A stretch of 59,090 nt of DNA, the filler included, from Candidatus Omnitrophota bacterium (GTDB lineage Bacteria; Omnitrophota; Gorgyraeia; JAGLLT01): assembly GCA_023140385.1 (NCBI GenBank). It is 3 parts of 3 records of this genome, joined end to end, with 100 filler letters (N's around TTAATTAATTAA, not from the genome) between each part and the next. Parts side by side here need not be neighbours in the genome. Positions count along the whole stretch, not along the records: positions 1 to 24,585 come from JAGLLT010000052.1; 2 more parts are not named here. One strand, written 5' to 3'. The notes under the pieces were generated by a model. The model was not told where the DNA came from, ran no database searches, and worked only from the letters and a program-made list of their open reading frames with translations. Both the position numbers and the translations under genes were made by a program. Shown one piece after another: positions 1 to 58,566 of this stretch (position 1 is the first letter of the stretch; every line of letters begins with the position of its first letter).

Positions 1-209
1 CCATCTACTTCCAAGCTTCCGTCTACAAAGAGGTCGCCGTCTGATGTGGCATTGTTTACAGTGTGAGTGCCGTCTGTTATCATAACGGGCCCGCCTGTGA
101 AGTAGGCGGGGTAGTTGGTAGAACCACCGGAAGCCTTCCCATAAACTCCATAATTAGTTCCAAGGCCTGCTGCCCAACTATACACTCCATAACAAGGAAC
201 AGAACTATG
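1..209. repeat. Intragenic repeat module B, copy 2 (near-identical to 2158-2366)
   Basis: 5 mismatches in 209 bp by manual alignment; offset 2157 bp = 719 codons, in frame. Confidence 0.95.
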
Positions 210-3200
210 ATCACTGTCAACAGTGATATTTTGTCCATAAAGAGTATAAGCGGAACAAGCAGAGGTCGCATCATCATTCACTGATATACTTGAACCATAA
301 AGCGAACCATTGCTTTTAGCATTTGTTGATGTACTGTCAACATCTACAAAGCTACCATACACAGTCGCAGTAAGACTTCCATCGTCTGTATGATTAAGGT
401 CAAGATACATACCATAACCTGCGCTGTCAGCTATAGTTTGAAGAATGTTTACTTTTCTTATTGAAGTAGGTGCAACTCCTATTCCTACTATTCCTTCAAC
501 CCTTAAATTATTATCTCCTGCTTCTGTGGTAGAGCCAACGGTTAACCCACCATCAAGTAACAGGTCATCGCCCGCGGGCGTAATCGTCAGATCGCCAACC
601 CCGGTAGTTATTGCGCCGGAAGCAGTATCCGCGGCACTGCCTAAAGCGAGAGTCGCCGCATTAGCGCTATTGTCAGAGTTTATCGTAAACGTATCAGCCG
701 TGGTGCCTGTGAGCGCGCTTTCGCCTGATACAGTTGCAGTGAGAGTGCCGCCTACAGTTAAATCCCCGTCAAGGAGAACATTGCCGGCATCTACCCATAA
801 AGCATAGGGGTTGGTGATGGTCATGTTTGTGCCTGCGGCAGGAGCATCGGCGATATATAGGGTGGCGGCGTCAGTAATGGTAACGGCATTTGTGCCGGCT
901 AAGGTGGGTTGAGCAAAGGAGCTTACCGCACCTGTCGCGCGTGTGCCGGCATCGCCTGTGTCTGTGAAGGTAGCCGCAGCCCCTTGATACTGAATACCCG
1001 CTGTAAGCCATGAAGCGGCCGAGACATCGCCGGAGATAATAGTCGGCATTTGAATATCGAAACCGAGGATGTTAGTGTCTTCTCTGGTAAGCTCGAAATA
1101 ATCTGTTACGTCATTTACTTGCCATCTAATCCATTTTCTTGTTGCTGCTGCTGTTATCCAGCCATATTGATTAATACTTCTATTTTCTCCTGAAGCACAA
1201 TTTGAAAAATAATAAACTGGGCCTTGTGCGCTTAACATTAAGTGTAATGAAGAGGCATCTTTCGCAAAGTTGCATTGGTTTGCAGGAGAATCTATATTCG
1301 CAGTTCCTGAACCACTTATATATAAATCTAAGTAAACGTCGCCATCAACACTATCTATCCTGCCAATTTTAAGTTTTTTACCTATTACATCTCCCATATC
1401 GCCAGTACTAAATAAAACAACATCCCCACCAGCACTCGGATAAATCTTATAATCACCTTGTCCTATATCTGTTACAAAATCAGTCTGATTATGATAAAAT
1501 TCCCCATAATCTAAAGCCTGAGTAGCATCACTGGAATAAATTCTAAATACTGGGTTGGCACTTGTTGATAGGGGGGAGCGGTTGGCGTTAGCCATGTCAG
1601 CTTGTTCCATAATGGATATATAACCTGAATAATCAGTACTTCCAACTAACGTTCCAATCTGTAAATTGTCATTACCTGTCGGTTCCCAACCGACTCTTAC
1701 ATCTCTACCATTACCAAAACCTAAGGTATAACTATCCCTAAGTTTTAGAGATATGTCATTAAAATCAGCTAAAAATACACCAGTTCCAGATCCTATAATT
1801 ACATTATTTTCCGTAGTCTCAAAATCTAACGTCAAATTCTCATTATTCGTCCCCCCAATCCCAGCCATAGTAAAAACCCCAGAAGCTCCGCTTAAACTTA
1901 CTCCTGTTGAGCCTCCTAGTTGGGAGATACCATATCCACTTTGTATCTGTAAATTAGCGTTATCTAAAATAACATCATTCCCAGCGGGGTCTAAGGTTAA
2001 GTCGCCCACAGTTGTAGCTATAGTACCTGTTCCTGTGCCTGCGCCTCCTAATGTAAGTGTAGTCACAACATCTGTTGTGTTGTCAGAGTTTATCGTAAAT
2101 GTATCTGCTGTTGTACCTGTCAATGCAGAGCCGCCTGATACTGTCCCATATATTGCCCCATCTACTTCCAAGCTTCCGTCTACAAAGAGGTCGCCGTCTG
2201 ATGTGGCATTGTTTACAGTGTGAGTGCCGTCTGTTATCATAACGGGCCCGCCTGTGAAGTAGGCGGGGTAATTTGTCGAACCACCGGAAGCCTTCCCATA
2301 AACTCCATAATTAGTTCCAAGGCCTCCCGCCCAACTATACACTCCATAACAAGGAACAGAACTATGGTCGCTATCGGCATAGGCATTTATTCCCCTTACT
2401 CCCCAGCCAGTACATGCTACAGTAGCATCATCCCGCGCCCATACATCAATTCCCATTAGGGTCCCAGTTTCCTTTACTGCGGCAGAAGTAGCATCCGCCA
2501 TCACATAAAAACCCCTCATATTGCCAGAACCAACACCTGTATAGGTATTATCATAGTCTATATAACAGCCGCTTGTATTTTTTCCGCTAAAATCACCATC
2601 AACAACAAGCGAATAAGATGTACTTGGTGATGTTCCAATTCCAACAATTCCATTAAGCGTAACGCTATCAGCCGCTATCTGAATCAGGTCAGTATCAGCG
2701 GTTAACCCTATATCTCCACCGTCAATAATAAGGTCGCCGACTATATCAAGACCAGCACTGTCAAATCTTCCTGCTTCTACTCCTCTTGGTTTAAACACAA
2801 TAGCATTATCATCAGTAGTAGGAGCTGAACCTGCTCCAGTATTTGCCCCAGTTGATATAATAAAATCATCTGTTATCCAAGCAAGCGAACCCCATTGGTT
2901 GTTTGAAGTGTCGGGAGATAAATCGGAATGGATATATAATGTTGGGTTGGTTTGAACTACGTGGTCATAGTTTTTATTAAAAACAGTCCTGTTAGCTATA
3001 ATAATCTGATTGCCTGTTTCATCTAACGTAGCAAATATAACTTGGTCATTTTCTATATCTGCAAAAAGCCTAAATGCTTCTGTTCCTGCATAATTAAAAT
3101 CAAAAGTCCCATATTGAGAACTAAAATCTAAATTTCCATTGCCAACTACTATATTAAAATTATTCTGGTCATGATAAAATTCACCATAATCCAAAGCCTG

Positions 3201-4835
3201 AGTAGCATCACTTGAATAAATCCTAAATACTGGGTCGGCTGAGGTTCCAGAAGAGGAACGGTTGGCGTTGCCCATGTCGGCATATTTCATTAAACTAAAA
3301 TATCCAGATTGGTCAGCACTGCCACAAGCAATTCCAAGTTGAAGATTATCATTACCCTCTGTAACCCACTTTAAACTAGAGTCACTTCCTGAACCTCCAT
3401 ATTTATTACCAAAACCATCTTCAAAATTGAAACTCAAATACGACCACATCCTATTTAGACCAGATGTGCTATTCCATACAGCATAATTAGCGCCACTTTC
3501 AAAACTCAATGTTACATTCTCGTTATGCGTATTCCCGATCCCCGCCAAAGTCAACACTCCTGAAGCTCCGCTTAAACTTACTCCTGTGCTTCCTCCGAGT
3601 TGGGAGATACCGTAACCGCTTTGAATATTCAAATTAGCATTATCCAGAATAACATCATTTCCTGCTGGGTCTAAAGTTAAGTCGCCTGCAGTCGTAGCCA
3701 CCTTGCCTGATGCGCCTCCGAAGGTAAGTATGCCCGGGTCGGCGTCTCCGTCTGAGTCAATGGTAAATGTATTCGCTGATGTACCGCTTATATCCGCGCC
3801 GGTTCCTGTTATTATGCCGGCGGCGGTTACATTTCCATCGGCATCAACATTGAATTTGGATGAACCGGCAACTTGCAAATTTAAAAGATTGCCTGTAAAA
3901 CCGCTGGCCGCGTTACCGGCAAGCAGAGTGCCGTTCGCGGAACCGGAAAAAAATCCGGCAGTCGCTCCATCCCAGGCGGAAGAACCAACTGAAATAAGAC
4001 CGTAGTTTGCTGAATTAATGCCGTTGTAAACTTGAAAATAGCTTGTACTATCTCTTTGCAGGTCTAATAGTTTATCGGCTGTACCTGGGGCGGATGTTTC
4101 GGTAACATTAAGTTTAAGAGCGGTATAATTTCCGGAAGTTGCCTTATTTATAACAGCAGATAAGTCATAGGCGGCTTCATTGCCTGTCGCGGCAGAACGG
4201 GTCAAAGTACTTGTAAGCCCGTAGCCGGAGGCCGGGTTCAGGCTAAGATTGGTTGTCGAGCTCGTTATGGCGGCTGTTATAACTCCGCCGTCCGCGTAGA
4301 TGCTGTCATCAACTTCCAGGGCGCCGGATACAAAAAGGTCATCGTTTAAAGAAATATGGCCGGCTGTACCGGCATCACCGATTATAGTATATGCCATAGT
4401 TGGTAGAAAGGTCAGATTTGTACCCGAAACCGTCTTTATATTACCCACATATAAATTTAACCAGGCAATTGAGGGCGAGCCCAAATCGTCTGTTGAGTCT
4501 GTGTCAGAAACTATACTTGAACCTGAAATTATGCCATTTAAGGCGGTGAGGGCGTCAGAAACTATTAGGCCTGACTCTAAATAGGCGGCGCCGTCAACTT
4601 CAAGGGTTCCGGTAATGTACAAATCATCGTTTGAGCCGGCATAAGAGTTCGTACCTGTCCCGTCACCAATCTGAACATTACCTCCTTCGCCCGGGCAGAT
4701 AACCAGATCTTCATTTGCCGTCGTTGTAATATCAACCGGCACACCATCGAATTCTAAAGTGCCGGCACGCGCGCAGTAAATACATAGAAAAGTTATACCG
4801 GTTATCACAATTAATAGCATAATTAATTTTTTCAT
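1..4835 (-). CDS. Giant secreted, repetitive Gly/Thr/Asp/Ser-rich fibre/adhesin-like protein (3' end lies beyond the window; >=1611 aa)
   Basis: Hand translation from ATG at 4835 (SD AGGAGAGG upstream): MKKLIMLLIVITGITFLCIYCARA-GTLEFDGVPVDITTT... No stop seen down to position 1 (...DGDLFVDGSLEVDG). Sec-type signal peptide ending A-R-A; internal repeats. Probably absent from the ORF track because its stop is outside the window. Confidence 0.9.
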   Translation of the reverse strand, partial: MKKLIMLLIVITGITFLCIYCARAGTLEFDGVPVDITTTANEDLVICPGEGGNVQIGDGTGTNSYAGSNDDLYITGTLEVDGAAYLESGLIVSDALTALNGIISGSSIVSDTDSTDDLGSPSIAWLNLYVGNIKTVSGTNLTFLPTMAYTIIGDAGTAGHISLNDDLFVSGALEVDDSIYADGGVITAAITSSTTNLSLNPASGYGLTSTLTRSAATGNEAAYDLSAVINKATSGNYTALKLNVTETSAPGTADKLLDLQRDSTSYFQVYNGINSANYGLISVGSSAWDGATAGFFSGSANGTLLAGNAASGFTGNLLNLQVAGSSKFNVDADGNVTAAGIITGTGADISGTSANTFTIDSDGDADPGILTFGGASGKVATTAGDLTLDPAGNDVILDNANLNIQSGYGISQLGGSTGVSLSGASGVLTLAGIGNTHNENVTLSFESGANYAVWNSTSGLNRMWSYLSFNFEDGFGNKYGGSGSDSSLKWVTEGNDNLQLGIACGSADQSGYFSLMKYADMGNANRSSSGTSADPVFRIYSSDATQALDYGEFYHDQNNFNIVVGNGNLDFSSQYGTFDFNYAGTEAFRLFADIENDQVIFATLDETGNQIIIANRTVFNKNYDHVVQTNPTLYIHSDLSPDTSNNQWGSLAWITDDFIISTGANTGAGSAPTTDDNAIVFKPRGVEAGRFDSAGLDIVGDLIIDGGDIGLTADTDLIQIAADSVTLNGIVGIGTSPSTSYSLVVDGDFSGKNTSGCYIDYDNTYTGVGSGNMRGFYVMADATSAAVKETGTLMGIDVWARDDATVACTGWGVRGINAYADSDHSSVPCYGVYSWAGGLGTNYGVYGKASGGSTNYPAYFTGGPVMITDGTHTVNNATSDGDLFVDGSLEVDGAIYGTVSGGSALTGTTADTFTINSDNTTDVVTTLTLGGAGTGTGTIATTVGDLTLDPAGNDVILDNANLQIQSGYGISQLGGSTGVSLSGASGVFTMAGIGGTNNENLTLDFETTENNVIIGSGTGVFLADFNDISLKLRDSYTLGFGNGRDVRVGWEPTGNDNLQIGTLVGSTDYSGYISIMEQADMANANRSPLSTSANPVFRIYSSDATQALDYGEFYHNQTDFVTDIGQGDYKIYPSAGGDVVLFSTGDMGDVIGKKLKIGRIDSVDGDVYLDLYISGSGTANIDSPANQCNFAKDASSLHLMLSAQGPVYYFSNCASGENRSINQYGWITAAATRKWIRWQVNDVTDYFELTREDTNILGFDIQMPTIISGDVSAASWLTAGIQYQGAAATFTDTGDAGTRATGAVSSFAQPTLAGTNAVTITDAATLYIADAPAAGTNMTITNPYALWVDAGNVLLDGDLTVGGTLTATVSGESALTGTTADTFTINSDNSANAATLALGSAADTASGAITTGVGDLTITPAGDDLLLDGGLTVGSTTEAGDNNLRVEGIVGIGVAPTSIRKVNILQTIADSAGYGMYLDLNHTDDGSLTATVYGSFVDVDSTSTNAKSNGSLYGSSISVNDDATSACSAYTLYGQNITVDSDHSSVPCYGVYSWAAGLGTNYGVYGKASGGSTNYPAYFTGGPVMITDGTHTVNNATSDGDLFVDGSLEVD
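1490..2010. repeat. Intragenic repeat module A, copy 2 (diverged copy of 3170-3690)
   Basis: Offset 1680 bp = 560 codons; shared peptides GDLTLDPAGNDVILDNANL.IQSGYGISQLGGSTGVSLSGASGV and PVFRIYSSDATQALDYGEFYH. Confidence 0.9.
2158..2366. repeat. Intragenic repeat module B, copy 1
   Basis: Matches 1-209; encodes HSSVPCYGVYSWAGGLGTNYGVYGKASGGSTNYPAYFTGGPVMITDGTHTVNNATSDGDLFVDGSLEVDG. Confidence 0.95.
3170..3690. repeat. Intragenic repeat module A, copy 1
   Basis: Aligns with 1490-2010, with many synonymous changes and a variable middle. Confidence 0.9.
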
Positions 4836-4864
4836 TGTCCCTCTCCTATATTTTTTTATAAAAT

Positions 4865-6583
4865 TTAGGCATTTTCCGTTACCCGCAGTAATTCTGAGAC
4901 AGAAGCATTTCCGGCGATAACATTTTCTAAGCCTGCCTGAGTTAAAGTCTTCATCCCGGCTTTACGCGCCTCTTCTCTTAAAATGGCATCAGAAGCCTTC
5001 CGAGTAATCATTTCCTTTATCTTATCATTGGGAATTAAGAGTTCATAAATACCGCTTCTGCCAATGTAGCCGCGCTCGTTACATTTTGAACAGCCGGTTT
5101 CCTTATAGAATGTATATTTTTTATCCGCCTTGGTTTTATCCAGTTTAACCTCAAGGAGTAACTGCGGGGATGGCTTATATGATTGCTTGCAATGCGGGCA
5201 AAGAATACGGAGAAGACGTTGAGCTAAAATACCAACAAGTGATGAGGCAACCAAAAATGGCTCAACTCCCATATCGATAAGGCGTGTAGCCGCCGAGGTC
5301 GCGTCATTAGTATGTAACGTAGTAAAAACCAGGTGCCCGGTTAAAGCGGCATGGATCGCGATATCCGCGGTCTCTTTATCTCGTATCTCACCAATCATAA
5401 TGATATCAGGATCTTGTCTTAATATTGAACGCAAGCCGGTAGCAAAGGTAAGGCCGGCTTTTACGTTTACCTGGGACTGACGAATATGAGGAATTTCATA
5501 TTCTACCGGATCTTCAAGTGTAATAACGTTTTTTTCTACACTGTTTATCTGGCTCAAAGCCGCGTAGAGGGTTGTGGTCTTTCCGCTTCCCGTGGGGCCG
5601 GTGACTAAAATAATACCATAGGGGCGGTGAATAAGCCGTGAAAAGGCTTTCAGGTTCGCGGAAGAAAAACCTAATTGTTCAAGATTGAGTATGCCTTGTG
5701 AACGGTCAAGTATTCTAATTGCTAAATTCTCACCATAAATAGTAGGAAAAGTAGAAACCCTTAAATCTATATCCCTTCCTGAAATTGACATTTGAATACG
5801 GCCATCCTGAGGAAGGCGTTTTTCGGCAATATCCATGTTTGCCATAATTTTAATTCTGGAAATAACCGCGGCTTGACTTACCAGAGGAAACTCAGAAATC
5901 GGATACAAAAGCCCATCAATCCGATAGCGGCATTCGTATTTATTACGCTGAGGCTCTAAATGTATATCTGAAGCGCTCATTTCTACAGCATGAGCAATAA
6001 ATTCATTAACCATCTCCACTACTGGAGCAAGACTGGCAGCATGTTTTAAAGACGCGACTTCTTCAGTGGGGGTTTCGGTTTTTGAAGAAATAGAAGGGCC
6101 CTTTGAAACAAAAATTCCTGATGAAGCAAGAACTTGACCTTCTTTTGTTTTGTGATGCTTTTCTTCTATGGCATCGCGAATAGCGGAAGGACAACCAAAA
6201 ACCGCCTTTATCCTCAATCCCGAAACTTCCTGTAGTTCATCTATTACTTTTACATCTAAGGGGTTGGCCATCGCTACAGTAAGAGTATTTTGACTGATAA
6301 AAAGAGGAAGGGCTTTTAGCCGAGTTGCCATCCTTTCGGGAACGAGGGCTAAAGCCTTTGGTTCAACATTAATCTCCGATAAATCCACAAAGGCAAAACC
6401 TAATTGCTGGCTTAAACATTTGGCAACTTGTTCTTCAGTAGCAGCTCCCCGAGCAACCAGAATCTCTCCAATAAAACGACCGCTTCGACTTTGTTCCTGA
6501 AGAGCTTCATTAAGGTCATTAGGAGTAATTATACCTTCGTTTGTAAGAATCTGGCCTACTTTTCTTTGCTCTTGATTTTCCAT
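4865..6583 (-). CDS. pilB: GspE/PilB family secretion/pilus assembly ATPase
   Basis: Walker A GPTGSGKTT, RQDPDIIMIGEIRD, TGHLVFTTLH, CPHC/CSKC zinc motif, MshEN-like N-terminus. Confidence 0.93.
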   Translation of the reverse strand: MENQEQRKVGQILTNEGIITPNDLNEALQEQSRSGRFIGEILVARGAATEEQVAKCLSQQLGFAFVDLSEINVEPKALALVPERMATRLKALPLFISQNTLTVAMANPLDVKVIDELQEVSGLRIKAVFGCPSAIRDAIEEKHHKTKEGQVLASSGIFVSKGPSISSKTETPTEEVASLKHAASLAPVVEMVNEFIAHAVEMSASDIHLEPQRNKYECRYRIDGLLYPISEFPLVSQAAVISRIKIMANMDIAEKRLPQDGRIQMSISGRDIDLRVSTFPTIYGENLAIRILDRSQGILNLEQLGFSSANLKAFSRLIHRPYGIILVTGPTGSGKTTTLYAALSQINSVEKNVITLEDPVEYEIPHIRQSQVNVKAGLTFATGLRSILRQDPDIIMIGEIRDKETADIAIHAALTGHLVFTTLHTNDATSAATRLIDMGVEPFLVASSLVGILAQRLLRILCPHCKQSYKPSPQLLLEVKLDKTKADKKYTFYKETGCSKCNERGYIGRSGIYELLIPNDKIKEMITRKASDAILREEARKAGMKTLTQAGLENVIAGNASVSELLRVTENA

Positions 6584-6604
6584 ATTTTGATTTTTTTAAA
6601 AAAG

Positions 6605-6979
6605 TTACAATGGTTTATAGTGTAGCTGTACTCTCTTTTCAACATTACCCACATTGCCGACAGAAGTAATTATAGAGTACGCGTAGTTTATCTCAACTCT
6701 ATAGGTTCCTTCTCCCAAACTTATCGGGCCAATGGTTTGCTTAACGTCCGCGCCTTCTTTTGCTTGAGTCCGCATTGTCTTGACAGCCTGTGCGATGCCT
6801 GCCTCAGCTAAGTATAATGCCTTCGCGTCATCAGCTATGGTACGACTAGAAACATCCACCGCCAGAAGAGAAACAGCTAAAGTCGCGCCTATTAATCCAA
6901 TCGTTAATAAGATTATGAGCACACTAAGTAACGCGACTCCTTTTTTTGGTATTGGATATGTTAATTTTTTTAGATTCAT
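6605..6979 (-). CDS. PilX/GspK-like minor (pseudo)pilin
   Basis: KKG|VALLSVLIILL prepilin-like helix lacking E5; ALYLAEAGI motif typical of the PilX N-terminus. Confidence 0.75.
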   Translation of the reverse strand: MNLKKLTYPIPKKGVALLSVLIILLTIGLIGATLAVSLLAVDVSSRTIADDAKALYLAEAGIAQAVKTMRTQAKEGADVKQTIGPISLGEGTYRVEINYAYSIITSVGNVGNVEKRVQLHYKPL

Positions 6980-6991
6980 CTTTTTATCAAT

Positions 6992-7450
6992 TTAATTCAC
7001 AGGTCTAATTTCTGTCCAGGTCATATCCTCTATTAGAGTAACTAAAACTATTATTGGCTCGTCTTGCTTCTCCTGGCGAAAAACACTTACGCGCACTTCT
7101 ACGGGATCGGAATTCACAATAACTTCTCTCTTAATCCGCCAGCACAGTTTATTCATCTCTAATGGTGCTTCATCAAGGGGCGGATAAACTAAACTGCCTG
7201 TCTTTTTTAACTGTTCCTTTGTAAAATTTAAATTCTTTATTCTTTCCATCTCCCACTTGGCTAAATTAGTAGCCGTAATAAGTTCCTGGCAAGAGGCAGT
7301 ACAATATAAGGAATGAGAGAACAGCTGCATAACCGGTACAAATAAAAGCCCTAATATCGCTAAAGTAATTAGAAGTTCGATAAAACTAAACCCTGTCGTA
7401 AAATTTTTTTTTACCACTTCGACGGCATTTCTCCCTCTGCCTTGCCCCAT
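6992..7450 (-). CDS. PilV/GspI-like minor (pseudo)pilin (true start possibly GTG at 7417)
   Basis: G|FSFIELLITLAIL type III signal/N-methylation motif. Confidence 0.8.
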   Translation of the reverse strand: MGQGRGRNAVEVVKKNFTTGFSFIELLITLAILGLLFVPVMQLFSHSLYCTASCQELITATNLAKWEMERIKNLNFTKEQLKKTGSLVYPPLDEAPLEMNKLCWRIKREVIVNSDPVEVRVSVFRQEKQDEPIIVLVTLIEDMTWTEIRPVN

Positions 7451-7911
7451 TTTGAATCAAGAGGCTCATCCCAATTTATTATAACCAATGCTTTATCTAC
7501 ATAATAAACCCACCCCCCGGTAGAACTCAAAGACTCTTCAAGGTTTTGATTTATAATTTCAGCAAAACCTTCCCGGCAAGAGATAAATTCCAAAGGAATA
7601 GAGTCTAAGTACGGCTTTTCTATTCCCAAATCATTATAGGTCACTTCCAATAATTCCTCTAACTCATCCGGATAACGCCCTTCCTTGGTACGAAAAAGAC
7701 TAATACGAGTCCGCAGGGTACTTAAGTTTGTTTTACTGGCAGCAAGGCGCGCTTCAGTATCAAAGCCAATAAAATTGGGAATTATCGTAGCCGCCAATAT
7801 CGCGATGATGGAAATAACGATAAGAAGTTCAAGAAGAGTAAAAGCGTTAGAAGCGGATATACGCGGATACCTACGCGGATATACACAGACTTTTTGCGCG
7901 AGCTGCATCAT
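7411..7911 (-). CDS. gspG: GspG-like major (pseudo)pilin
   Basis: A|FTLLELLIVISIIAILAATIIP with E5 and P22, followed by GRYP..LEEL. Confidence 0.8.
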   Translation of the reverse strand: MMQLAQKVCVYPRRYPRISASNAFTLLELLIVISIIAILAATIIPNFIGFDTEARLAASKTNLSTLRTRISLFRTKEGRYPDELEELLEVTYNDLGIEKPYLDSIPLEFISCREGFAEIINQNLEESLSSTGGWVYYVDKALVIINWDEPLDSKWGKAEGEMPSKW

Positions 7912-7952
7912 AAATCCTCCGTTTAAGTTCTAATTTTTTACTGCCGTTATAA

Positions 7953-9164
7953 TTATCCACGAAATACTTTAATCAAATTAAAAATGGGTAACAAAACGGA
8001 TAACGCGATAAAAGCCACCATGGCTCCCATTACCAAAAGCATAAGTGGTTCAAGCAAGACGGTTAAATTTTTTATAGTATATTCTACCTCCGGCTCATAA
8101 AGCAAAGCTACCTCTTCAAGCATCTGGTCCAGCTTTCCACTCTTCTCACCTGTAGAAATCATTTGTACTACCATTGGAGAGAAAAAAGTGCTTGCTTTAA
8201 ACGGCTCTACTAAAGAATGGCCTTCGGTTAAATTAATTCTTATATTTTGTATTGACTGGCGAATTACTACATTAGTAACGGTCTTTTCCACCACAGTTAG
8301 AGCCTGCAGTAACGGAATGCCGACACTGGTTAAGGTTGAAAGTGTTCGCGCAAAGCGGGCGATTTGTATTTTAGTATATATCTTTCCAAAAAAAGGCAGC
8401 CCCAAAAGCCATCGATGGAAGCGATAATTTCCATCCGTTGTCTTTATATAATTTTTAAAACACCAAAACGCGAAAATTAAACCGGCCAGTATAAAAAACC
8501 AGAACCGGCGCAATATCCAGCTTATACCCAGAATAATCCGGGTAACAACAGGAAGCGACGCGCCTGAAGCGCGAAATACCACTATAAATTTAGGTAAAAC
8601 CCCCACTACCAATAAATTTACCACTAAAAACGCGACCGCCATCAAAACCACCGGATAAATTAATGCTGACTTAATGCGAGTCTGTAATTCCAACTCCTTG
8701 GTTCCTAACTTAGCCAATCTATATAAAACTTCATCTAACATTCCACCCGTCTCACCAACCCTCGCCATATTGACAGAAAGTTCAGAAAAAACTTTTGGAT
8801 ATTTAGAAAGGGCATCTGAAAAACTTTCACCGGAATGTATATAGCGGCTTATATTCTTCAAAATTACCTTAAATTTTTTATTGGTTGTTTGCTCGCAAAT
8901 AGCCTCTAAGCTGGGCAAAAGGGCTGTGCCCGAACGAAGCAGAGTAGCTAATTGCCGTGCAAAGATATTAACATCCCGTTTTTCTACTCGCTTAAAACGA
9001 CTAAAAATATCACCTAAAGAGAAAGAAGATTCTTGGGGTTTTAACTCAATGACACTACAGCCCATACTGTCTAAATGAGCGACAATCCCCTGTTCGCTTT
9101 CACCCTCCAGAGTGCCTGAAATTAATTTCCCTTGCTTATCGCGCGCCTTATAGATATATTTCAT
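7953..9164 (-). CDS. pilC: GspF/PilC inner-membrane platform protein
   Basis: RQLATLLRSG, VGETGGMLD, SALIYP, GEKSGKLD, LLEP motifs; three TM segments. Confidence 0.93.
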   Translation of the reverse strand: MKYIYKARDKQGKLISGTLEGESEQGIVAHLDSMGCSVIELKPQESSFSLGDIFSRFKRVEKRDVNIFARQLATLLRSGTALLPSLEAICEQTTNKKFKVILKNISRYIHSGESFSDALSKYPKVFSELSVNMARVGETGGMLDEVLYRLAKLGTKELELQTRIKSALIYPVVLMAVAFLVVNLLVVGVLPKFIVVFRASGASLPVVTRIILGISWILRRFWFFILAGLIFAFWCFKNYIKTTDGNYRFHRWLLGLPFFGKIYTKIQIARFARTLSTLTSVGIPLLQALTVVEKTVTNVVIRQSIQNIRINLTEGHSLVEPFKASTFFSPMVVQMISTGEKSGKLDQMLEEVALLYEPEVEYTIKNLTVLLEPLMLLVMGAMVAFIALSVLLPIFNLIKVFRG

Positions 9165-9169
9165 AATTT

Positions 9170-10933
9170 CTAATGGGTAATATTATTTGTTCCGCTTTTA
9201 TTTATCAAGGCTCTCTGCTTGCTATATTTTTCAACTTTTTTATATAATTTTTTAGCGCGGAGACAAAAAGGACTGTCCGGATAATCTGAAATTAATCGGC
9301 TTAAACATTCCTTTGTCCGCTTATTATCTCTACAGTACTTATAATAAATCAAACTGGCACGATATAAAGCCTCAGGCGCTCTATAACTGTCAGGAAATTC
9401 TACATAGATATGCTCATAAAAACTTAATGCCTGATTCTTTCGAAAACCCTTATCTTTTCTTCTGCTCTCTAAGCCCCAACCTTTGTCTAAATCTCTCGCG
9501 CTTTTAAATATTTGTTCTACTATAGTAAGCTGCCCCGTCCTTTCTATATGTACCAAAACTCCTTCTTGCTCAATTTGCTTACGACTTAACGTCTTCTTTT
9601 CCTGGCGGGAAAGTAGAATTTTAGGCGTAATAAAAACAGCTAATTCCTTTCGCTCCTTATTTCTTTCACTGCGTGAGAATAAAAGTCCCAAAACAGGAAT
9701 GTCGCCTAAAATAGGAATTTTCTCTTTTGTAAATTCATCTCCCTGCTTAATCAGTCCGGCAATAATCAACGTTTCTCCTTCTTTTATACGCACAGTGGTA
9801 TCGGCCTCACGCGTGGTAATTCTCGGACCGGCATCTAAAGAAGCATATAAAGAAGAAACCTCTGGATGAACACGCATAGTAATATATCCATCTTCATTTA
9901 TCTGAGGAACTACCCGCAAAGTAACACCGATATCCACAAACTTGGTGGTTTCGGTTGTTCCGGTAGCGGTTTGAGTACGCTCTTTATAGGGATACCTCTC
10001 ACCAATAACAATACGCGCTTCCTGATTGTTTAAAACGGCTATAGTGGGAGAAGCCAGGAGATTAGCCTTTCCATCTTTGACTAAGGCATCAAGGGTACCG
10101 GTAATGGTCAGGTCCAATAAAGCGAGGGTATCCAGGGTAAACTGACCGCCGGTGAGAGAGGAAGATTGTTCGCTCATATCCAAAGTGCCTTTTAGTCTTT
10201 CCTCATAAGCCTTTTGTTTTCGGGTAAAAATTCCGTGTCCCGGATTAAAATCCGCGTCCCATTTTATACCAAACATAGCTAAATCCGTTGAGGTAATATC
10301 AACAATCTTTGCCTCGATAAGCACCTGTTGAGGGGCAATATCTATTTTTTTAAGAAGCTTTATAACTTTTTGGATATTTCGCGTAAAATCCGTAATAATA
10401 AGAGCATTAGATAACTCATCTATCTTAATATCTCCTTTTTCAGAAATAACCTTTTTTAAAATATTCTGCGCCTCACCTGACTGAATATATTTTAAACGTA
10501 TTACCTCGGAGGTTAAGTTCACAACTTTTGTATCGCCTTTAGAAACATACATAATGCCGTCGCGGATAGTGTAGGCTAAACCATTTATGGTTAGCATTGC
10601 CTCTAAGGCCTTCCCTACGGTGATGTTTTTTAGGTTCACAGTTACCTTCCCCTTTACATCCGGAGAGGCAATAATATTTACATCATAAGTCCAGGAAAGA
10701 GAGCGTAAAATATTGCATAAATCCGCGTCTTTATAATCCAGATCTATCACTTGCTCAAGTTTATCTTCAATGCTGATGTTTTCTGTTTCAGAAACTTCAG
10801 CGGTAACAGAAATCTCAGAGGTGGATTCTTCCGACCAAATAGGCGTTTGAATAAATATCAAATCACCCATTAAAAGCCCAATCAAAATTAACCGCGTCAT
10901 ATACCTGAGCTTGTGTATTTTTTGGTATATCAT
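9170..10933 (-). CDS. pilQ: Secretin (PilQ/GspD family) with C-terminal TPR extension
   Basis: N0/N3-like domains, QVLIEAKIV, LASPTIAVLNNQEA, KIPILGDIPVLGLLF, ELAVFITPKI; extra ~140 aa with FPDSYRAPEALY / YPDSPF. Confidence 0.9.
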   Translation of the reverse strand: MIYQKIHKLRYMTRLILIGLLMGDLIFIQTPIWSEESTSEISVTAEVSETENISIEDKLEQVIDLDYKDADLCNILRSLSWTYDVNIIASPDVKGKVTVNLKNITVGKALEAMLTINGLAYTIRDGIMYVSKGDTKVVNLTSEVIRLKYIQSGEAQNILKKVISEKGDIKIDELSNALIITDFTRNIQKVIKLLKKIDIAPQQVLIEAKIVDITSTDLAMFGIKWDADFNPGHGIFTRKQKAYEERLKGTLDMSEQSSSLTGGQFTLDTLALLDLTITGTLDALVKDGKANLLASPTIAVLNNQEARIVIGERYPYKERTQTATGTTETTKFVDIGVTLRVVPQINEDGYITMRVHPEVSSLYASLDAGPRITTREADTTVRIKEGETLIIAGLIKQGDEFTKEKIPILGDIPVLGLLFSRSERNKERKELAVFITPKILLSRQEKKTLSRKQIEQEGVLVHIERTGQLTIVEQIFKSARDLDKGWGLESRRKDKGFRKNQALSFYEHIYVEFPDSYRAPEALYRASLIYYKYCRDNKRTKECLSRLISDYPDSPFCLRAKKLYKKVEKYSKQRALINKSGTNNITH

Positions 10934-10975
10934 TACTTTATCTCCCGGTTATTCGAAATAGTACACATTGTTTAC

Positions 10976-11830
10976 TCACCTCTCAATTTCAAGTGTGCAT
11001 TCCTCCGCGTCGTCAGTCAAGATCACACCTTCAGGAAGTATTTGTATTATTTTAAAATTACCTATTTGACTGCCTATTTTTACCACCTCTCCATTTATAA
11101 TAGCGGTAGATTTTTCTGCGTTATACGTTATACCTTCTAATTTTAACTCCTTTTTTTTCTCTTTTATGAAATTTTTTGACTTTGAAATAAATATATCTCT
11201 GGTATCAGAAGTTATCTCTAAAACATCTTTTGCTATAAGCTGCTCCACAGAAGAAAAATTTGTTAAAAGGCTGGAAAATATCATTCGGCCGGAAACTTCC
11301 TTATTGCCCGAAGAAGAGTTTGAAAGTTCTATTTCCTCAATTTTTAGAAAGGGCGAGATACTCTCCAGCCTTTTAATATAATTTATTACCTCTTTATAAA
11401 CTGCGTTAAATTCAACTTCAATAAAAATCCGGGAATAATTATCATTTATTTCTATTTTCTTGCGTAGAGAAAGTAACTTAACTTTTTCTTTTGCCTGCCG
11501 GCTAAACTCTGCCAAAAGTTGAGCAATATTTCCCGTAGCCGGAAGCGCACTTCTTATCCGGCCTATCTGACTAAGGAGATTTTCGCATTCTTCATCTAAC
11601 ATCGCTGTCTTTCCCTTTTGCTTATCCAAACTGGGAATTTTAGCTTTAAGGCCCTTTAGGCGACTACGAAATCTTTCTGACTGGCCTTTATAACGTTTTA
11701 TCCCGCGGGATAAAGGCTTATAAATTGTTTGTGAATAAACGTTAAATCCAATAAAAGCGATAAAGGCAACGACTAATATCTTTTCCCTGTATTTTAACTT
11801 TTTAAAAGAAATTAAAACTTTATCTATCAT
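10976..11830 (-). CDS. PilO/GspM-like protein fused to a C-terminal PilP/GspC/GspB-like beta domain
   Basis: REK..TM, coiled coil, LP...IAQLL, YIKRLES; C-terminal LKLEGITY..AIINGEVVKIG..IIQILPEGVIL; position in cluster. Confidence 0.7.
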   Translation of the reverse strand: MIDKVLISFKKLKYREKILVVAFIAFIGFNVYSQTIYKPLSRGIKRYKGQSERFRSRLKGLKAKIPSLDKQKGKTAMLDEECENLLSQIGRIRSALPATGNIAQLLAEFSRQAKEKVKLLSLRKKIEINDNYSRIFIEVEFNAVYKEVINYIKRLESISPFLKIEEIELSNSSSGNKEVSGRMIFSSLLTNFSSVEQLIAKDVLEITSDTRDIFISKSKNFIKEKKKELKLEGITYNAEKSTAIINGEVVKIGSQIGNFKIIQILPEGVILTDDAEECTLEIER

Positions 11831-13674
11831 CTTCTTATCTCGGCAACTACTTCAAAAGTATAAATTTCACTCTTGGATTCCTTCTCACTACTGATAAAAC
11901 TAGCTCCGGAAAATTCATCTTTTGCTTTTAGGGCGTCTACCAGCTGCATCACCACATTTATATCCTGCGTAGAACCTATGATGTTCAACTTTCCCTCTTC
12001 ATACTTTAACTTTGTGACCCAAACATCCTCCGGCAATAATAAAGAAGTAATAAAAAGAATATTAGAAATTTCTTCCGGCCTTCGCGCCCCATCCTCAAGA
12101 AACTTTAACTCTTCCTTCAATAGAATCTTCTTATCCAAAATTTCAGATTCTATTTTAGCTAAATCTAACTGTTCGAGATTGCGGTCGTTAAGTGTTATCT
12201 TTGCCTTTTCCGTTTCCATCCTTAAAAAATTCATCTTTGATTTTGAAAGAGCCAACTTCGCTACCTGAAAACCGACAAGAATCATAAAAAGACAGCTAAT
12301 CGCGACTGTCACTGCAACTGCTCTTTTTTTCCTAAAAATCTCCCTGAAAATCTTACTGGACTTTTTTGATTCGGCAGATATAAAGTTGAGACATTGTGAT
12401 TTGTCCGTTTTTGAGCTTACGGCTAAAGCCGCGCATACTGTAAAATTAGAGTCATGTTGAATGAGAGCTTTATTCTTTTGAGTGAGAGTTTCGGAAATAC
12501 CAAATAAATCAAAAGGATTGACTACTTCTACGGGCACGCCCAATTTTAAACCTAAAAAGCTGTTTAAATTTTTAAGGGTGGCTCCTTTCCCTGATAAGAT
12601 CAGACGGTCAAACTTAATAACCTGAGACTGGCTAACCTGATAAGAAAAATATTTGAATGAGTGCTCAATATCCACTACCAGATTTTCTAAATGTGAAACT
12701 ATGGCGTAATAAATTTTAGCAGATTCACTCTGCGTCTTTTCTGAGGATTTGTTTTCTAAAAAAGGTGAGGGTTTTTTATCTACTGACCAATAAATAAGGC
12801 CATGCTGTTTGAGCGCTTCTTTCGCGTTCTCTATGCTTATATTCAAGGATTTAGAAACTGTATTGGCTAAATGTTCAAAATTAAAGTTAAGCTGTCTTAA
12901 GAAAAGCGCCTTTCCATTTTTTTCAATAATCAGCGAACTTTCATCGACACCTAAATCAAGCCATAAAGCTACCTCCTCCGTTTCAGCCGGCCGTCTAAAG
13001 AATCTACTCAAGTTAATTAGACTAAGCTGACTAATCTCTAAAGAAAACAATTTCAGGCCTACAGCGTTAAATAATTGAGATTTTTGGGCAATTATTTTAT
13101 AAGGCGCGCAGGCGCACAACAATCTGATTCCCGGTGATACCGCTGTTTTTTGCTCATCGGTGTCCAACTTTAAAAATTTGAAATTTATTTCCTCCATATT
13201 CAAATCAAAGGGTCTAATTTGAGCAAGTTTGTATTGTAACGCGGTGTTAAGTTCTGACTCAGGCATAGAAGGGAAAGTTACGTTGTAAATCCGGATATCA
13301 TTAACAGAAAGCCCTATTACGCAATCCTGAGTAATATTATTGCGTTTAACTATCTTTTGAAGCGCATCTTTTTGATAGGTCAAATGATTAACTTCTAAAG
13401 CTATAGAGTATTTCTCTTCATCTATTGCTACAATTTCCAATTCACCTTTTGGATTCTCGGCCAATTGCAGGAATTTAATACTTTGAGAATTTATATCTAT
13501 TGCCGGCGGCAAAGCCGTTAAGGACTGCGATTTTTTAGCCTTTAAGGACAGTATGGTTTTGGGAGGACGTTTAAAATTAGTAAAAAGAGCGGAAACCTTG
13601 CCCTTAGCCGTGTGAGGCCTTCCAAATATCTCTTTCACGATATTCTTGTTATGCTGGGCTTTGTTTTTATTCAT
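11827..13674 (-). CDS. PilM-PilN fusion (GspL-like architecture)
   Basis: Actin-like PilM part (AIDINSQSIK, WLDLG, LILSGKGA, VEVVNPF), then LNF motif, TM, coiled coil and PilN LPEDVWVTKL. Confidence 0.8.
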   Translation of the reverse strand: MNKNKAQHNKNIVKEIFGRPHTAKGKVSALFTNFKRPPKTILSLKAKKSQSLTALPPAIDINSQSIKFLQLAENPKGELEIVAIDEEKYSIALEVNHLTYQKDALQKIVKRNNITQDCVIGLSVNDIRIYNVTFPSMPESELNTALQYKLAQIRPFDLNMEEINFKFLKLDTDEQKTAVSPGIRLLCACAPYKIIAQKSQLFNAVGLKLFSLEISQLSLINLSRFFRRPAETEEVALWLDLGVDESSLIIEKNGKALFLRQLNFNFEHLANTVSKSLNISIENAKEALKQHGLIYWSVDKKPSPFLENKSSEKTQSESAKIYYAIVSHLENLVVDIEHSFKYFSYQVSQSQVIKFDRLILSGKGATLKNLNSFLGLKLGVPVEVVNPFDLFGISETLTQKNKALIQHDSNFTVCAALAVSSKTDKSQCLNFISAESKKSSKIFREIFRKKRAVAVTVAISCLFMILVGFQVAKLALSKSKMNFLRMETEKAKITLNDRNLEQLDLAKIESEILDKKILLKEELKFLEDGARRPEEISNILFITSLLLPEDVWVTKLKYEEGKLNIIGSTQDINVVMQLVDALKAKDEFSGASFISSEKESKSEIYTFEVVAEIRR

Positions 13675-14570
13675 TGGGCATTAATTGAGTCAGGCCGGGT
13701 TAATAAAATTACATCTTCGGTTAGCGCGAGATAATCCTCCGCGCCATGTGATTTAGGAGCGTATTCAAATATAGATTTTTTATTTAAGGATGCCTCAGCC
13801 AATTTTATAGTCCTTCGGATAACAGTACTAAAAACCTTGTCTTTAAAATAGTCTTTTATCTGCTGAAGTATATCTTTATTCATCTTTGCTCTTGAATCAA
13901 ACAAGGTGGGCAATATACCTAAAATCTCCAATTGGGAATTTAGCCGCTCTCGTACAAGTTCTATGGTTGAAAAGAGTTCTTTCATGCCTTCTAATGAAAA
14001 ATAATGCGTCTGAATAGGAACAAGTACAGATTGGGCTGCCACCAATCCGTTTATAGTTAAAAGGTTTAGCGAAGGAGAGCAATCTATTATAATGTAGTCA
14101 TAACTTTTAATTTGTGTTTTCAACGTTCTATAAATAGCAGTTCTTAAAAGCCCCTCCCGCTCAGATAAATCAGCTATCTTGAGCTGCGCGCCGGTAAGTA
14201 ATGAGACGGCGGGGATAATATCCAGATTCTTTATGTATGTTGGTATAATTACACGTTCGGATTCTAAATTACTCACTAAAATATCATAGACTGAATAAAT
14301 TAAATTATCTACATTTATTCCAATGCCAAATGAGGCATGCGCCTGAGCATCTAAATCTATCATAAGAACTTTAAACCCTTTTTTCGCTAAACACGAAGAG
14401 AGATTTATGGAAGTAGTTGTTTTCCCGCATCCTCCCTTTTGGTTAACAATAGAAATAATTACCGTTTTGGCCTTAGATTTTTCTGGTGACGAATAGAATT
14501 TTTCAGGTATGTGAGGCTGGGGAACTTGGGTATTTTTTTTATTAAAAATTGCTTTTAAATCTTCAAACAT
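13671..14570 (-). CDS. parA: ParA/Soj family ATPase (orphan, no parB nearby)
   Basis: NQKGGCGKTTT deviant Walker A, IDLDAQ, YIIIDCSPSL. Confidence 0.9.
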   Translation of the reverse strand: MFEDLKAIFNKKNTQVPQPHIPEKFYSSPEKSKAKTVIISIVNQKGGCGKTTTSINLSSCLAKKGFKVLMIDLDAQAHASFGIGINVDNLIYSVYDILVSNLESERVIIPTYIKNLDIIPAVSLLTGAQLKIADLSEREGLLRTAIYRTLKTQIKSYDYIIIDCSPSLNLLTINGLVAAQSVLVPIQTHYFSLEGMKELFSTIELVRERLNSQLEILGILPTLFDSRAKMNKDILQQIKDYFKDKVFSTVIRRTIKLAEASLNKKSIFEYAPKSHGAEDYLALTEDVILLTRPDSINAQ

Positions 14571-43964: not shown

Positions 43965-44041
43965 TGGTGGGCGATGCAGGACTCGAACCTGCTACTTCCA
44001 CGATGTGAACGTGGCACTCTAACCAAATGAGCTAATCGCCC
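43965..44041 (-). tRNA. tRNA-Val (CAC)
   Basis: GGGCGATTAGCTCA...CCACG TT CAC AT CGTGG...GGTTCGAGTCC...CGCCCACCA. Confidence 0.95.
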
Positions 44042-44068
44042 TCCTTCGCTAAAGCTACGGCGGGCAGG

Positions 44069-44131
44069 CCCGCTTTCACTATTAACTATTACGTAAACCC
44101 GCTTTCACTATCAACTATTACGTAAACCCGC
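44069..44131. repeat. 29-bp tandem repeat (2.2 copies) in the tRNA spacer
   Basis: cccgctttcactat(t/c)aactattacgtaaa twice, then cccgc. Confidence 0.9.
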
Positions 44132-44212
44132 CTGCTTCGCTGTTAGCTATGGCGGATAAATAGCTCCAAAGAATCGCTGGCCTGCCAGCCATAGCTCCAA
44201 AGGAGCGACGGC

Positions 44213-44289
44213 TGGTGGGCCCACCAGGACTTGAACCTGGGACCTACTGATTATGAGTCAGCCGCTCTAACCAACTGAGCTATGGGCCC
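44213..44289 (-). tRNA. tRNA with CAT anticodon, most likely tRNA-Ile2 (lysidine)
   Basis: GGGCCCATAGCTCAGTTGGTTAGAGC..GACTCATAATC..CCCACCA; paired 1-72; no initiator GGG/CCC anticodon stem. Confidence 0.88.
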
Positions 44290-58044: not shown

Positions 58045-58112
58045 ATCCCGGAAGGCTCCGGGATCTAATCCCCCCTGCGTGTTTTCGCCAGAAAACAAGG
58101 GGGGGGATATAT
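58045..58112. repeat. Hairpin repeat, copy 1 (small hairpin plus ~44 bp CCCCCTGCGTGTTTTC...GAAAACAAG.GGGG unit)
   Basis: Matches 58425-58517. Confidence 0.85.
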
Positions 58113-58424: not shown

Positions 58425-58517
58425 ATCCCGACGCTTCGGGATAAGTCTGCCTGCCTGCCGGTAGGCAGGAATTGATCCCCCCTGCGTGTTTTCTTCAGAA
58501 AACAAGAGGGGATATAT
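58425..58517. repeat. Hairpin repeat, copy 2, with an inserted CCTGCCTGCCGGTAGGCAGG palindrome
   Basis: atcccgacgcttcgggat, cctgcctgccggtaggcagg, atcccccctgcgtgttttcttcagaaaacaagaggggatata. Confidence 0.85.
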
Positions 58518-58566
58518 ATACATTAACCCCAAAGCTTGAGCTAAAAAGCACTCCGTTTCAAATCCC

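Follow-up and report, generated by a model that had tools for sequence, protein, structure and literature searches.

What might a type IV filament machine do when one gene of its cluster encodes a very long secreted fibre? This question is raised by a 59,090-nucleotide stretch (the window) of the genome of a Candidatus Omnitrophota bacterium (GenBank assembly GCA_023140385.1; G000 below), at whose start ten co-oriented open reading frames (ORFs) lie on the minus strand: nine machine genes, from parA to pilB, and then the fibre ORF as the tenth (Table 1). An earlier reading, made from the sequence alone, had placed the ten ORFs correctly, while counting ten machine genes ahead of the long one, and had taken the cluster for a self-contained exporter dedicated to a giant attachment protein. 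On the basis of our analysis, the machine is, judged by its genes, a lineage-specific type IV filament of Omnitrophota, and we give about an even chance to the view that its tip brings a variable adhesive fibre to the cell surface.

The fibre and the extent of the cluster

From parA to the fibre, the intergenic gaps are -4, -4, 42, 5, 41, -40, 12, 21 and 29 bp, a range of -40 to 42 bp that comes close to the 40 bp or less proposed before. Eight of the ten ORFs have Pfam or NCBIfam backing, and neither collection gave a match for the pilX-like ORF (124 amino acids, aa) or the long fibre ORF. The junction between pilB and the fibre was spanned by single contigs of runs X1, possibly the source run, and X3 with zero differences, and the terminator scan gave no terminator-like site in its 29-bp gap. 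It should be noted that the promoter and terminator scans ran near shuffle level (52 vs 38.4 +/- 6.8 and 19 vs 13.9 +/- 3.2, respectively), and only this absent match was put to use. The predicted protein of more than 1611 aa with a Sec signal peptide was indeed found behind pilB: at its N-terminus, a single hydrophobic stretch and an Ala-x-Ala site lie ahead of a conserved domain.

By its likeness to the MAT proteins of Bdellovibrio bacteriovorus, described in PMC10769870, the window protein looks like a long attachment fibre, as had been proposed. A profile made from the five VGIGTxP-type repeats of this organism, two in the window and three further on contig C9, matched 5 of 177,635 PDB sequences (best E 6e-14), all of which are Bdellovibrio MATs according to the data statement of that paper, and the fibre orthologue of G061 directly matched three of these five. 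PHROG tail-fibre families were matched by three of the six fibre orthologues examined. The fibre is predicted to be trimeric from its MAT likeness, and a C-terminal Peptidase_S74 domain in the G215 fibre gives indirect support to a homotrimeric state. Leads from the ESM Atlas (0.89-0.91 only) were not used. The layout of every family member is a signal peptide, a conserved start and then diverging modules: past residue 500, the number of orthologues that can be aligned at a given position is down to 0-5 of 27, mature lengths vary from ~300 to more than 4994 aa (some short ones contain assembly gaps) and the C-terminal ends differ. The conserved N-terminal domain is a candidate docking or export signal. 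It had no PDB match, in a comparison from which the N-terminal MAT domain is absent, since the deposited MAT chains are C-terminal pieces. No hydrophobic 19-residue window follows the signal peptide in the assembled parts of the window protein, the C9 piece and 31 orthologues. Other secreted fibre-like proteins, of more than 2000 aa and with internal repeats in common with the fibre, occur at L015 3792-13442 and L016 10669-16812; they have a different N-terminus and lie behind a small regulator-like gene with no pilus cluster, and one of them has YadA-head repeats.

Position 1 of the window is also the end of contig C48 and falls within a 209-bp repeat. At the end of contig C9 lies a 5'-open ORF of 1064 aa having repeats in common with the window fibre (87% over 206 aa), followed, with gaps of 19-48 bp, by the genes of a 757-aa secreted protein, a 119-aa ORF with no homologue among the related loci compared, a 418-aa pilin and a 151-aa secreted protein. 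The order of fibre, 757-aa gene, pilin and small gene recurs in G016 and G061 (with one and two extra ORFs after the fibre, respectively), and G071 has the fibre and then the 757-aa gene. Because of the common repeats and this equal gene order, we infer that C9 continues C48, the sequence between them not being assembled. Logan contigs left the gap unclosed; their joints 215-488 and 1031-2141 agree with the arrangement present on C9, and those near 1636 hint at more unassembled repeat copies. With the C9 piece added as its C-terminal part, the fibre probably has at least 2675 aa. Since C48 ends in the 209-bp repeat, the cluster had been described as self-contained and minimal, with only three pilins. 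Instead, judged by synteny, it goes on at C9, where a PilW-type pilin makes up a four-pilin set. The reported absence of PilT and of a prepilin peptidase holds at the locus and not for the genome (1.5 Mb), in which three PilT over the family cut-off and one prepilin peptidase are encoded outside the cluster. The mreBCD genes downstream on C9 were considered as MSHA-like synteny and rejected, as the neighbours differ in other genomes.

Table 1 Features of the cluster in the window
Feature	Position	Strand	Basis or remark
Orphan Soj-type ParA ATPase, 299 aa, first cluster gene	13671..14570	-	AAA_31, E 1.7e-56
PilM-PilN fusion, 615 aa	11827..13674	-	PilM_2 and PilN over cut-off
PilM N-terminal extension, 58 residues	13501..13674	-	Candidate ParA-binding peptide (putative function)
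PilO-PilP-like fusion, 284 aa	10976..11830	-	PilO and T2SSM_b over cut-off, weak C-terminal T2SSB
Secretin, 587 aa	9170..10933	-	STN, one Secretin_N, secretin domain, C-terminal TPR-like part
PilC/GspF/MshG platform protein, 403 aa	7953..9164	-	Two T2SSF domains
Major pilin, GspG-like, ~143 aa mature	7411..7911	-	Profile comparison
PilV/GspI/MshD-type minor pilin, 152 aa	6992..7450	-	N_methyl; GspI profile match 95.6%
Small PilX/MshP-type (PilK family) minor pilin without Glu5, 124 aa	6605..6979	-	Profile comparison
PilB assembly ATPase, 572 aa	4865..6583	-	T2SSE; N-terminal MshEN c-di-GMP-binding motif
Secreted mosaic fibre, 5' 1611 aa, open ORF	4835 to <3 (3..4835)	-	G/T/A/S/D/N-rich, internal repeats
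Sec signal peptide of fibre, residues 1-24	4764..4835	-	Hydropathy; Ala or Gly at -1 in 29/31 family members
Conserved N-terminal domain of fibre, ~65-100 aa	4470..4763	-	17 invariant columns in 28 sequences
VGIGTxP-type capping-loop repeat, copy 1 of 2 in window	2625..2645	-	Repeat profile
VGIGTxP-type capping-loop repeat, copy 2 of 2 in window	468..488	-	Repeat profile
209-bp internal repeat, assembly break point	1..209	.	97.6% identical to 2158-2366, 96% to C9 76265-76479

Occurrence and gene order across Omnitrophota

Relatives were placed by kinship searches in the window's own class and phylum, and all genome counts include G000. The fibre N-terminal profile gave one full match per genome in 27 of 401 class genomes (E 1e-22 or better), 12 more genomes with weaker, mostly partial matches being left out of the count. 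This single-copy domain lies in or beside the cluster in 25 of the 26 other genomes, with at most one gene between, and the earlier view that the long protein belongs to the machine is thereby upheld. Close orthologues of the 757-aa protein were found in 30 of 401 genomes (17 more with partial matches), the fused PilM-PilN in 23 of 401 class genomes and the major pilin in 49 of 401 phylum genomes; the five other genomes of the window's family (83-95% complete) gave no match. Full-length 757-aa orthologues accompany the fibre in 23 of its 27 genomes, where about two would be expected if the two were independent, but kin are not independent. Eight of 22 genomes with the PilM-PilN fusion have no fibre match, their cluster contigs ending before the fibre slot in the available DNA. 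Gene order is rearranged in some relatives: in one clade, the genes run from pilin through pilX, pilV, pilW, the small gene, the fibre and the 757-aa gene to pilB, and G119, G215, G221 and G290 have the fibre enclosed between pilW or the beta-helix gene and mshQ-like or pilB.

Among 38 further loci matched by the pilin, 6 have the fibre, 3 are of the fibre type by their other genes and 29 are without fibre or small gene as judged on the available DNA, many of them ending at contig ends; for 14 of these genomes, the whole-genome search likewise gave no fibre match. Of the 80 loci kept from a scan of metagenomes with the pilin alignment, 4 were close and the others were generic pilins. Several fibre-less clusters carry instead a long relative of the 757-aa protein, which we show below to be MshQ-like (1513 aa, 2031 aa and an 8624-aa open frame in G008), as if the long adhesin had been built in; in G066, the start of this long protein resembles the N-terminus of the small gene (hhalign 81%, 37 columns). 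In fibre-less clades (L198, L199, L201, L203, L204, L221, L222), pilW is often followed by ORFs that by eye resemble an ECF sigma/anti-sigma pair, sometimes ahead of the long MshQ-like gene. In G148, a secreted FGE-sulfatase-domain protein follows pilB in the slot that the fibre takes elsewhere (L195 11294-12655 = L053 19616-20977), and a similar ORF lies downstream in the fibre slot of G028 (L196 14066-15454).

Parts of the machine and how the fibre may be displayed

The components of the type IV filament superfamily, that is, ATPase, platform, class III pilins and secretin, are all encoded, with the peptidase in trans. Quick trees were built with few references, from Aeromonas, Acinetobacter, E. 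coli, Comamonas, Legionella and Manganitrophus loci. In these trees, the cluster PilB, PilC and secretin each formed one clade (SH-aLRT 99-100), apart from the other paralogues of G000 and from the references used. None of them grouped with the GspE, GspF or GspD references (deep branches are unsettled) and, as anticipated, none was nested among canonical type IVa pilus (T4aP) references. PilB and secretin fell outside the MshE and MshL pairs, and the PilC clade was sister to the single MshG reference, from Aeromonas (SH-aLRT 97). The assembly ATPase passed the cut-off of NF053729 and scored 603 bits for PilB and 602 bits for GspE, both below cut-off; hidden Markov models of GspF and GspD scored highest for platform and secretin, yet below cut-off. 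Against the MSHA family TIGR02519 the secretin reached 158 bits (cut-off 250), and it has Secretin_N in place of Secretin_N_2. The PilM-PilN fusion shows a GspL-like topology with one transmembrane (TM) segment at about residue 450, and other clades have PilM and PilN as two separate genes; the PilO-PilP-like fusion matched Aeromonas MshJ and E. coli GspM equally (91%). No MshM-type AAA ATPase and no AAA_22 gene was found in the cluster. Some orthologous clusters have an extra ORF between secretin and pilC (L014, L018, L022, L023, L024, L040, L048, L110, L192) that the window does not have; the three scanned (343-943 aa) have a coiled coil, C-terminal TPRs and an N-terminal signal-like stretch.

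The best profile match of the major pilin is E. coli GspG (hhalign 98.7% over 91 columns), MshA-type pilins aligning over 53-64 columns only; against NCBIfam GspG, it scored 41 bits (cut-off 89). The 124-aa pilin is closest to Aeromonas MshP (84%, E 7e-6), with E. coli GspK at 3.7%. The 418-aa pilin from C9, the fourth of the system, is of PilJ/PilW type with added domains, and its model has a GspJ/XcpW core (Z 9.1-10.7) and a galectin-like domain (Z 7-8, middling). The 757-aa protein passed the DUF6701 cut-off, and its sole match in a plasmid collection of 72,556 records was the DUF6701 gene of an Aeromonas msh locus (hhalign 95%, E 2.9e-8), a record without annotation in which msh names were assigned from domains and gene order. 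Its model (pLDDT 81) shows a lectin-like domain at the N-terminus and Ig-like domains, the last 16 residues being disordered; Foldseek gave only generic Ig or beta-sandwich matches for both structure models. The 151-aa secreted protein is small and, by sequence or model, beta-helix-like. According to the available part of PMC13533445, the final strand of PilK is supplied in trans by the C-terminus of PilY1, whereas GspK of the type II secretion system (T2SS) carries that strand in cis, and modelling predicts a like strand donation by MshQ. Taken with the MshP-like small pilin, the MshQ-like protein and the GspG-like major pilin, this suggests a pilus-like tip and a T2SS-like shaft, and the machine may be said to work like an MSHA-type tip on a GspG-type shaft. 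The earlier description as T2SS-like is to be revised, as four pilins with an MshQ-like tip protein are the arrangement of T4aP and MSHA pili and not of T2SSs.

The deviant Walker A motif of ParA is intact across 10 aligned orthologues. Counting the window, and setting aside duplicates as well as loci that lack DNA upstream, parA lies ahead of pilM in 46 of 54 loci, which makes ParA a conserved part and supports the earlier proposal of a ParA belonging to the machine. A plasmid-type partition role was rejected: no parB lies beside the cluster parA, and a chromosomal parAB pair is present on contig C24. The N-terminal extension of PilM has at least 53 aa in all 46 parA-positive loci and less than 40 aa in five of the eight parA-negative ones. 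A short motif in it, defined after viewing the data, occurs in 38 of 46 parA-positive and in none of the eight parA-less loci, and the extension of L040 is lost relative to its close sister L110. By eye, the extension is in part similar to the beginning of the ParB that the genome itself encodes. The cluster ParA (window 13671-14570) opens with a short conserved stretch of 12 residues in an amphipathic pattern, which might contact the membrane or a partner.

The encoded parts thus comprise an MshEN PilB motor, platform, alignment proteins, secretin, a GspG-like pilin, PilV, PilW and PilX minor pilins, an MshQ-like tip protein, a beta-helix-like secreted protein and a Sec-exported fibre with MAT/phage-fibre repeats. 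If the fibre is displayed on the tip, the single peptidase of the genome would process the pilins, and the small PilX would have its sheet completed by the tail of the MshQ-like protein, in the way that was shown for PilY1 and modelled for the pair MshQ-MshP. The fibre would trimerise in the periplasm, and its invariant N-terminal domain would attach it to the tip complex. The loaded tip would then be pushed through the secretin by a GspG-type filament, probably a short one, with the variable C-terminal end of the fibre outward and able to bind a host or prey surface. The motor would be gated by cyclic di-GMP, and nucleoid-bound ParA would position the machine via the PilM extension. A role in host attachment is suggested by MAT likeness and by the lifestyle proposed for the phylum in PMC10066038, as far as that source was available, and the source bacterium is probably host-attached.

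Several observations weigh against this picture. The major pilin is nearest to GspG of T2SSs, a likeness that would suit a piston no less than a display filament, and 14 class genomes have a pilin orthologue and no fibre N-terminal match in the whole-genome search; therefore the machine works without the fibre, and the strict dedication to one substrate claimed at first does not hold for the family as a whole. The G158 fibre has its 5' part between assembly gaps, away from the cluster, with another gene after pilB, and large proteins encoded away from such clusters in G021 and G043 have similar fibre repeats. The window fibre as a whole had no Pfam, NCBIfam, PHROG or PDB match, and both pieces from the window's organism were without a PHROG match. 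Some tails of MshQ-like orthologues are without the W-R-E ending (L042, L044, L204, G008). The link between ParA and the PilM extension comes to a post hoc motif and four independent pairs (p 0.25), and is a lead because the pairs are too few to reach significance.

Part of this would be expected of a T2SS-like piston, in which a GspG pseudopilus would drive its cargo, the folded fibre together with the MshQ-like protein, through the secretin, the fibre then being released or anchored on another surface component by its N-terminal domain. The GspG match, the GspL topology of the PilM-PilN fusion, the top GspF and GspD scores (though below cut-off) and the lack of PilT at the locus all agree with it. 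We nevertheless consider it rather unlikely, as the PilK-family pilin is small, MshP-like rather than GspK-like and accompanied by an MshQ-like protein, an in-trans tip being absent from T2SSs in the available text of PMC13533445, and as PilB, PilC and secretin are not among the GspE, GspF and GspD references. Just as unlikely, in our view, is a long surface pilus of the MSHA-like kind that PilB would extend and one of the three PilT would retract, with the MshQ-like protein as adhesin and the fibre as an optional accessory: a single GspG-like major pilin, no MshM-type ATPase, Secretin_N rather than the Secretin_N_2 of MshL, and PilB and secretin outside the MshE and MshL clades speak against it, despite the MshQ-, MshP- and MshG-like parts with an MshEN motor, the three PilT in the genome, the action of PilT on MSHA pili (according to the title of PMC9815625) and the fibre-less machines of the 14 genomes. 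Whether the fibre is loaded on the tip, pushed out as cargo or an accessory of a long pilus, the machine would be responsible for surface adhesion. Mere co-location and co-regulation, with the fibre leaving by another route and the operon common because both serve attachment, would suit G158, the related repeats in unlinked proteins and a MAT export route that is not established in the available text of PMC10769870. We regard it as very improbable, given a fibre gene kept in the cluster through several gene-order rearrangements and an N-terminal domain conserved while the remainder is swapped.

Returning to display on the tip, a broader proposal seems possible if somewhat doubtful in all its parts: a new type IV filament subtype, patchy in Omnitrophota, whose T2SS-like endopilus, bearing an MSHA-like tip, would act as dedicated exporter and anchor of a trimeric phage-tail-like fibre. 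The host-binding tips of this fibre would be swappable, the beta-helix protein would serve as adaptor between three-fold fibre and asymmetric tip, and nucleoid-bound ParA would place the machine via a peptide built into PilM. If true, it would offer a concrete outer-membrane route for MAT-type fibres and show how host range is set in an uncultured epibiont lineage. MAT export and anchoring are stated as open in the accessible part of PMC10769870; here a MAT-type fibre is hard-wired into a type IV filament operon, and therefore the link between MATs and pili becomes testable with defined partners. The fibre in a pilus-type cluster suggests, without proving, how such fibres reach the cell surface. 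The variable tips are candidate host-range determinants for an almost uncultured phylum; a GspG-like pilin with an in-trans tip protein sits between T2SSs and pili and bears on the divergence of both; and a Soj-type ParA acting on PilM, if true, would be a new cargo for ParA positioning systems.

Some other features of the genome may be recorded here. G000 has 9 PilB-like, 5 PilC-like and 7 secretin-like genes in many type IV filament loci, spread over contigs C8, C9, C21, C30, C33 and C48, but one prepilin peptidase, and a C33 cluster has a tandem pair of secretins and a long run of pilins. An imperfect palindrome of ~50 bp occurs twice in the window (58068-58112 and 58469-58518) and recurs on at least seven other contigs (C15, C18, C19, C29, C33, C39, C47). 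The intergenic stretch 43965-44237 of the window has several similar copies clustered on C33 85510-86189.

Comparison with known systems

The literature searched, which left most subscription journals and supplements outside, gave no account of this cluster, of an Omnitroph MshQ or of ParA-PilM positioning. The cluster departs in a defining feature from each of T2SS, MSHA pilus and T4aP. With the MSHA pilus of Vibrio and Aeromonas it has in common one operon with PilM/N/O-like proteins, secretin, MshEN ATPase, platform and PilIJK-type minor pilins, a DUF6701 tip protein with a small PilK/MshP (the tip gene being here on C9 and joined by synteny) and, in some orthologues, an optional TPR protein after the secretin. 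It differs in its single GspG-like major pilin, in ParA in place of the MshM-type AAA ATPase, in the secretin N-domain, the extra PilW domains and the added beta-helix protein and fibre, and in an ATPase and a secretin that form their own clades. The T2SS (Gsp/Xcp) likewise has the GspG-like major pilin, GspI/GspJ-like minor pilins and a GspL-like fusion, no retraction ATPase at the locus and a co-encoded Sec-exported protein, whereas the window cluster has no GspK-size tip pilin, no GspH that could be found, an MshQ-like tip protein and a secretin with one Secretin_N plus STN, and lies outside the GspE and GspD reference clades. In contrast with T4aP, the locus is without PilT (three elsewhere in the genome), and the tip protein models as lectin-like and Ig-like domains rather than as a beta-propeller PilY1.

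MATs, as presented in the available part of PMC10769870, have a signal peptide, a conserved domain of ~130 aa and a mosaic trimeric fibre; their anchor is described there as unknown, their export route is not established and a link to type IV pili is speculated only. The window fibre agrees with them in its signal peptide, conserved beta-rich N-terminal domain, mosaic phage-fibre-like body, capping-loop repeat, swappable tips and, in some members, S74 chaperone, and differs in being present in one copy per genome in a type IV filament operon, as against 21 MATs in Bdellovibrio. Large genes beside secretion or pilus genes are known from Omnitrophota (10.1101/2023.11.21.568195; 10.64898/2026.06.07.730766), and the fibre has in common with these giants the phylum, such neighbours, a large extracellular protein and a proposed attachment role. 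Those giants are of a different protein class and locus: they have many TM regions and often SecA domains, as reported in 10.1101/2023.11.21.568195, reach tens of thousands of residues and lie by RcpC and rotamase genes, so that the earlier link to them was misleading. Membership of the fibre in this transmembrane class was rejected: it has, in its assembled parts, no TM segment after the signal peptide and no SecA-like Pfam match, and its family spans 0.3-5 kaa (kilo-amino acids), some orthologues having 300-1100 aa. Finally, like the cargo-positioning ParA/MinD ATPases TadZ/CpaE, ParC and McdA (PMC11407121), the cluster ParA is an orphan A/D ATPase encoded with its cargo, and the partners of such ATPases often act via an N-terminal region. 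The pilus example of that work is the MinD-like TadZ, whereas the present cluster has a Soj-like ATPase, with an extension carried by PilM itself as its candidate partner.

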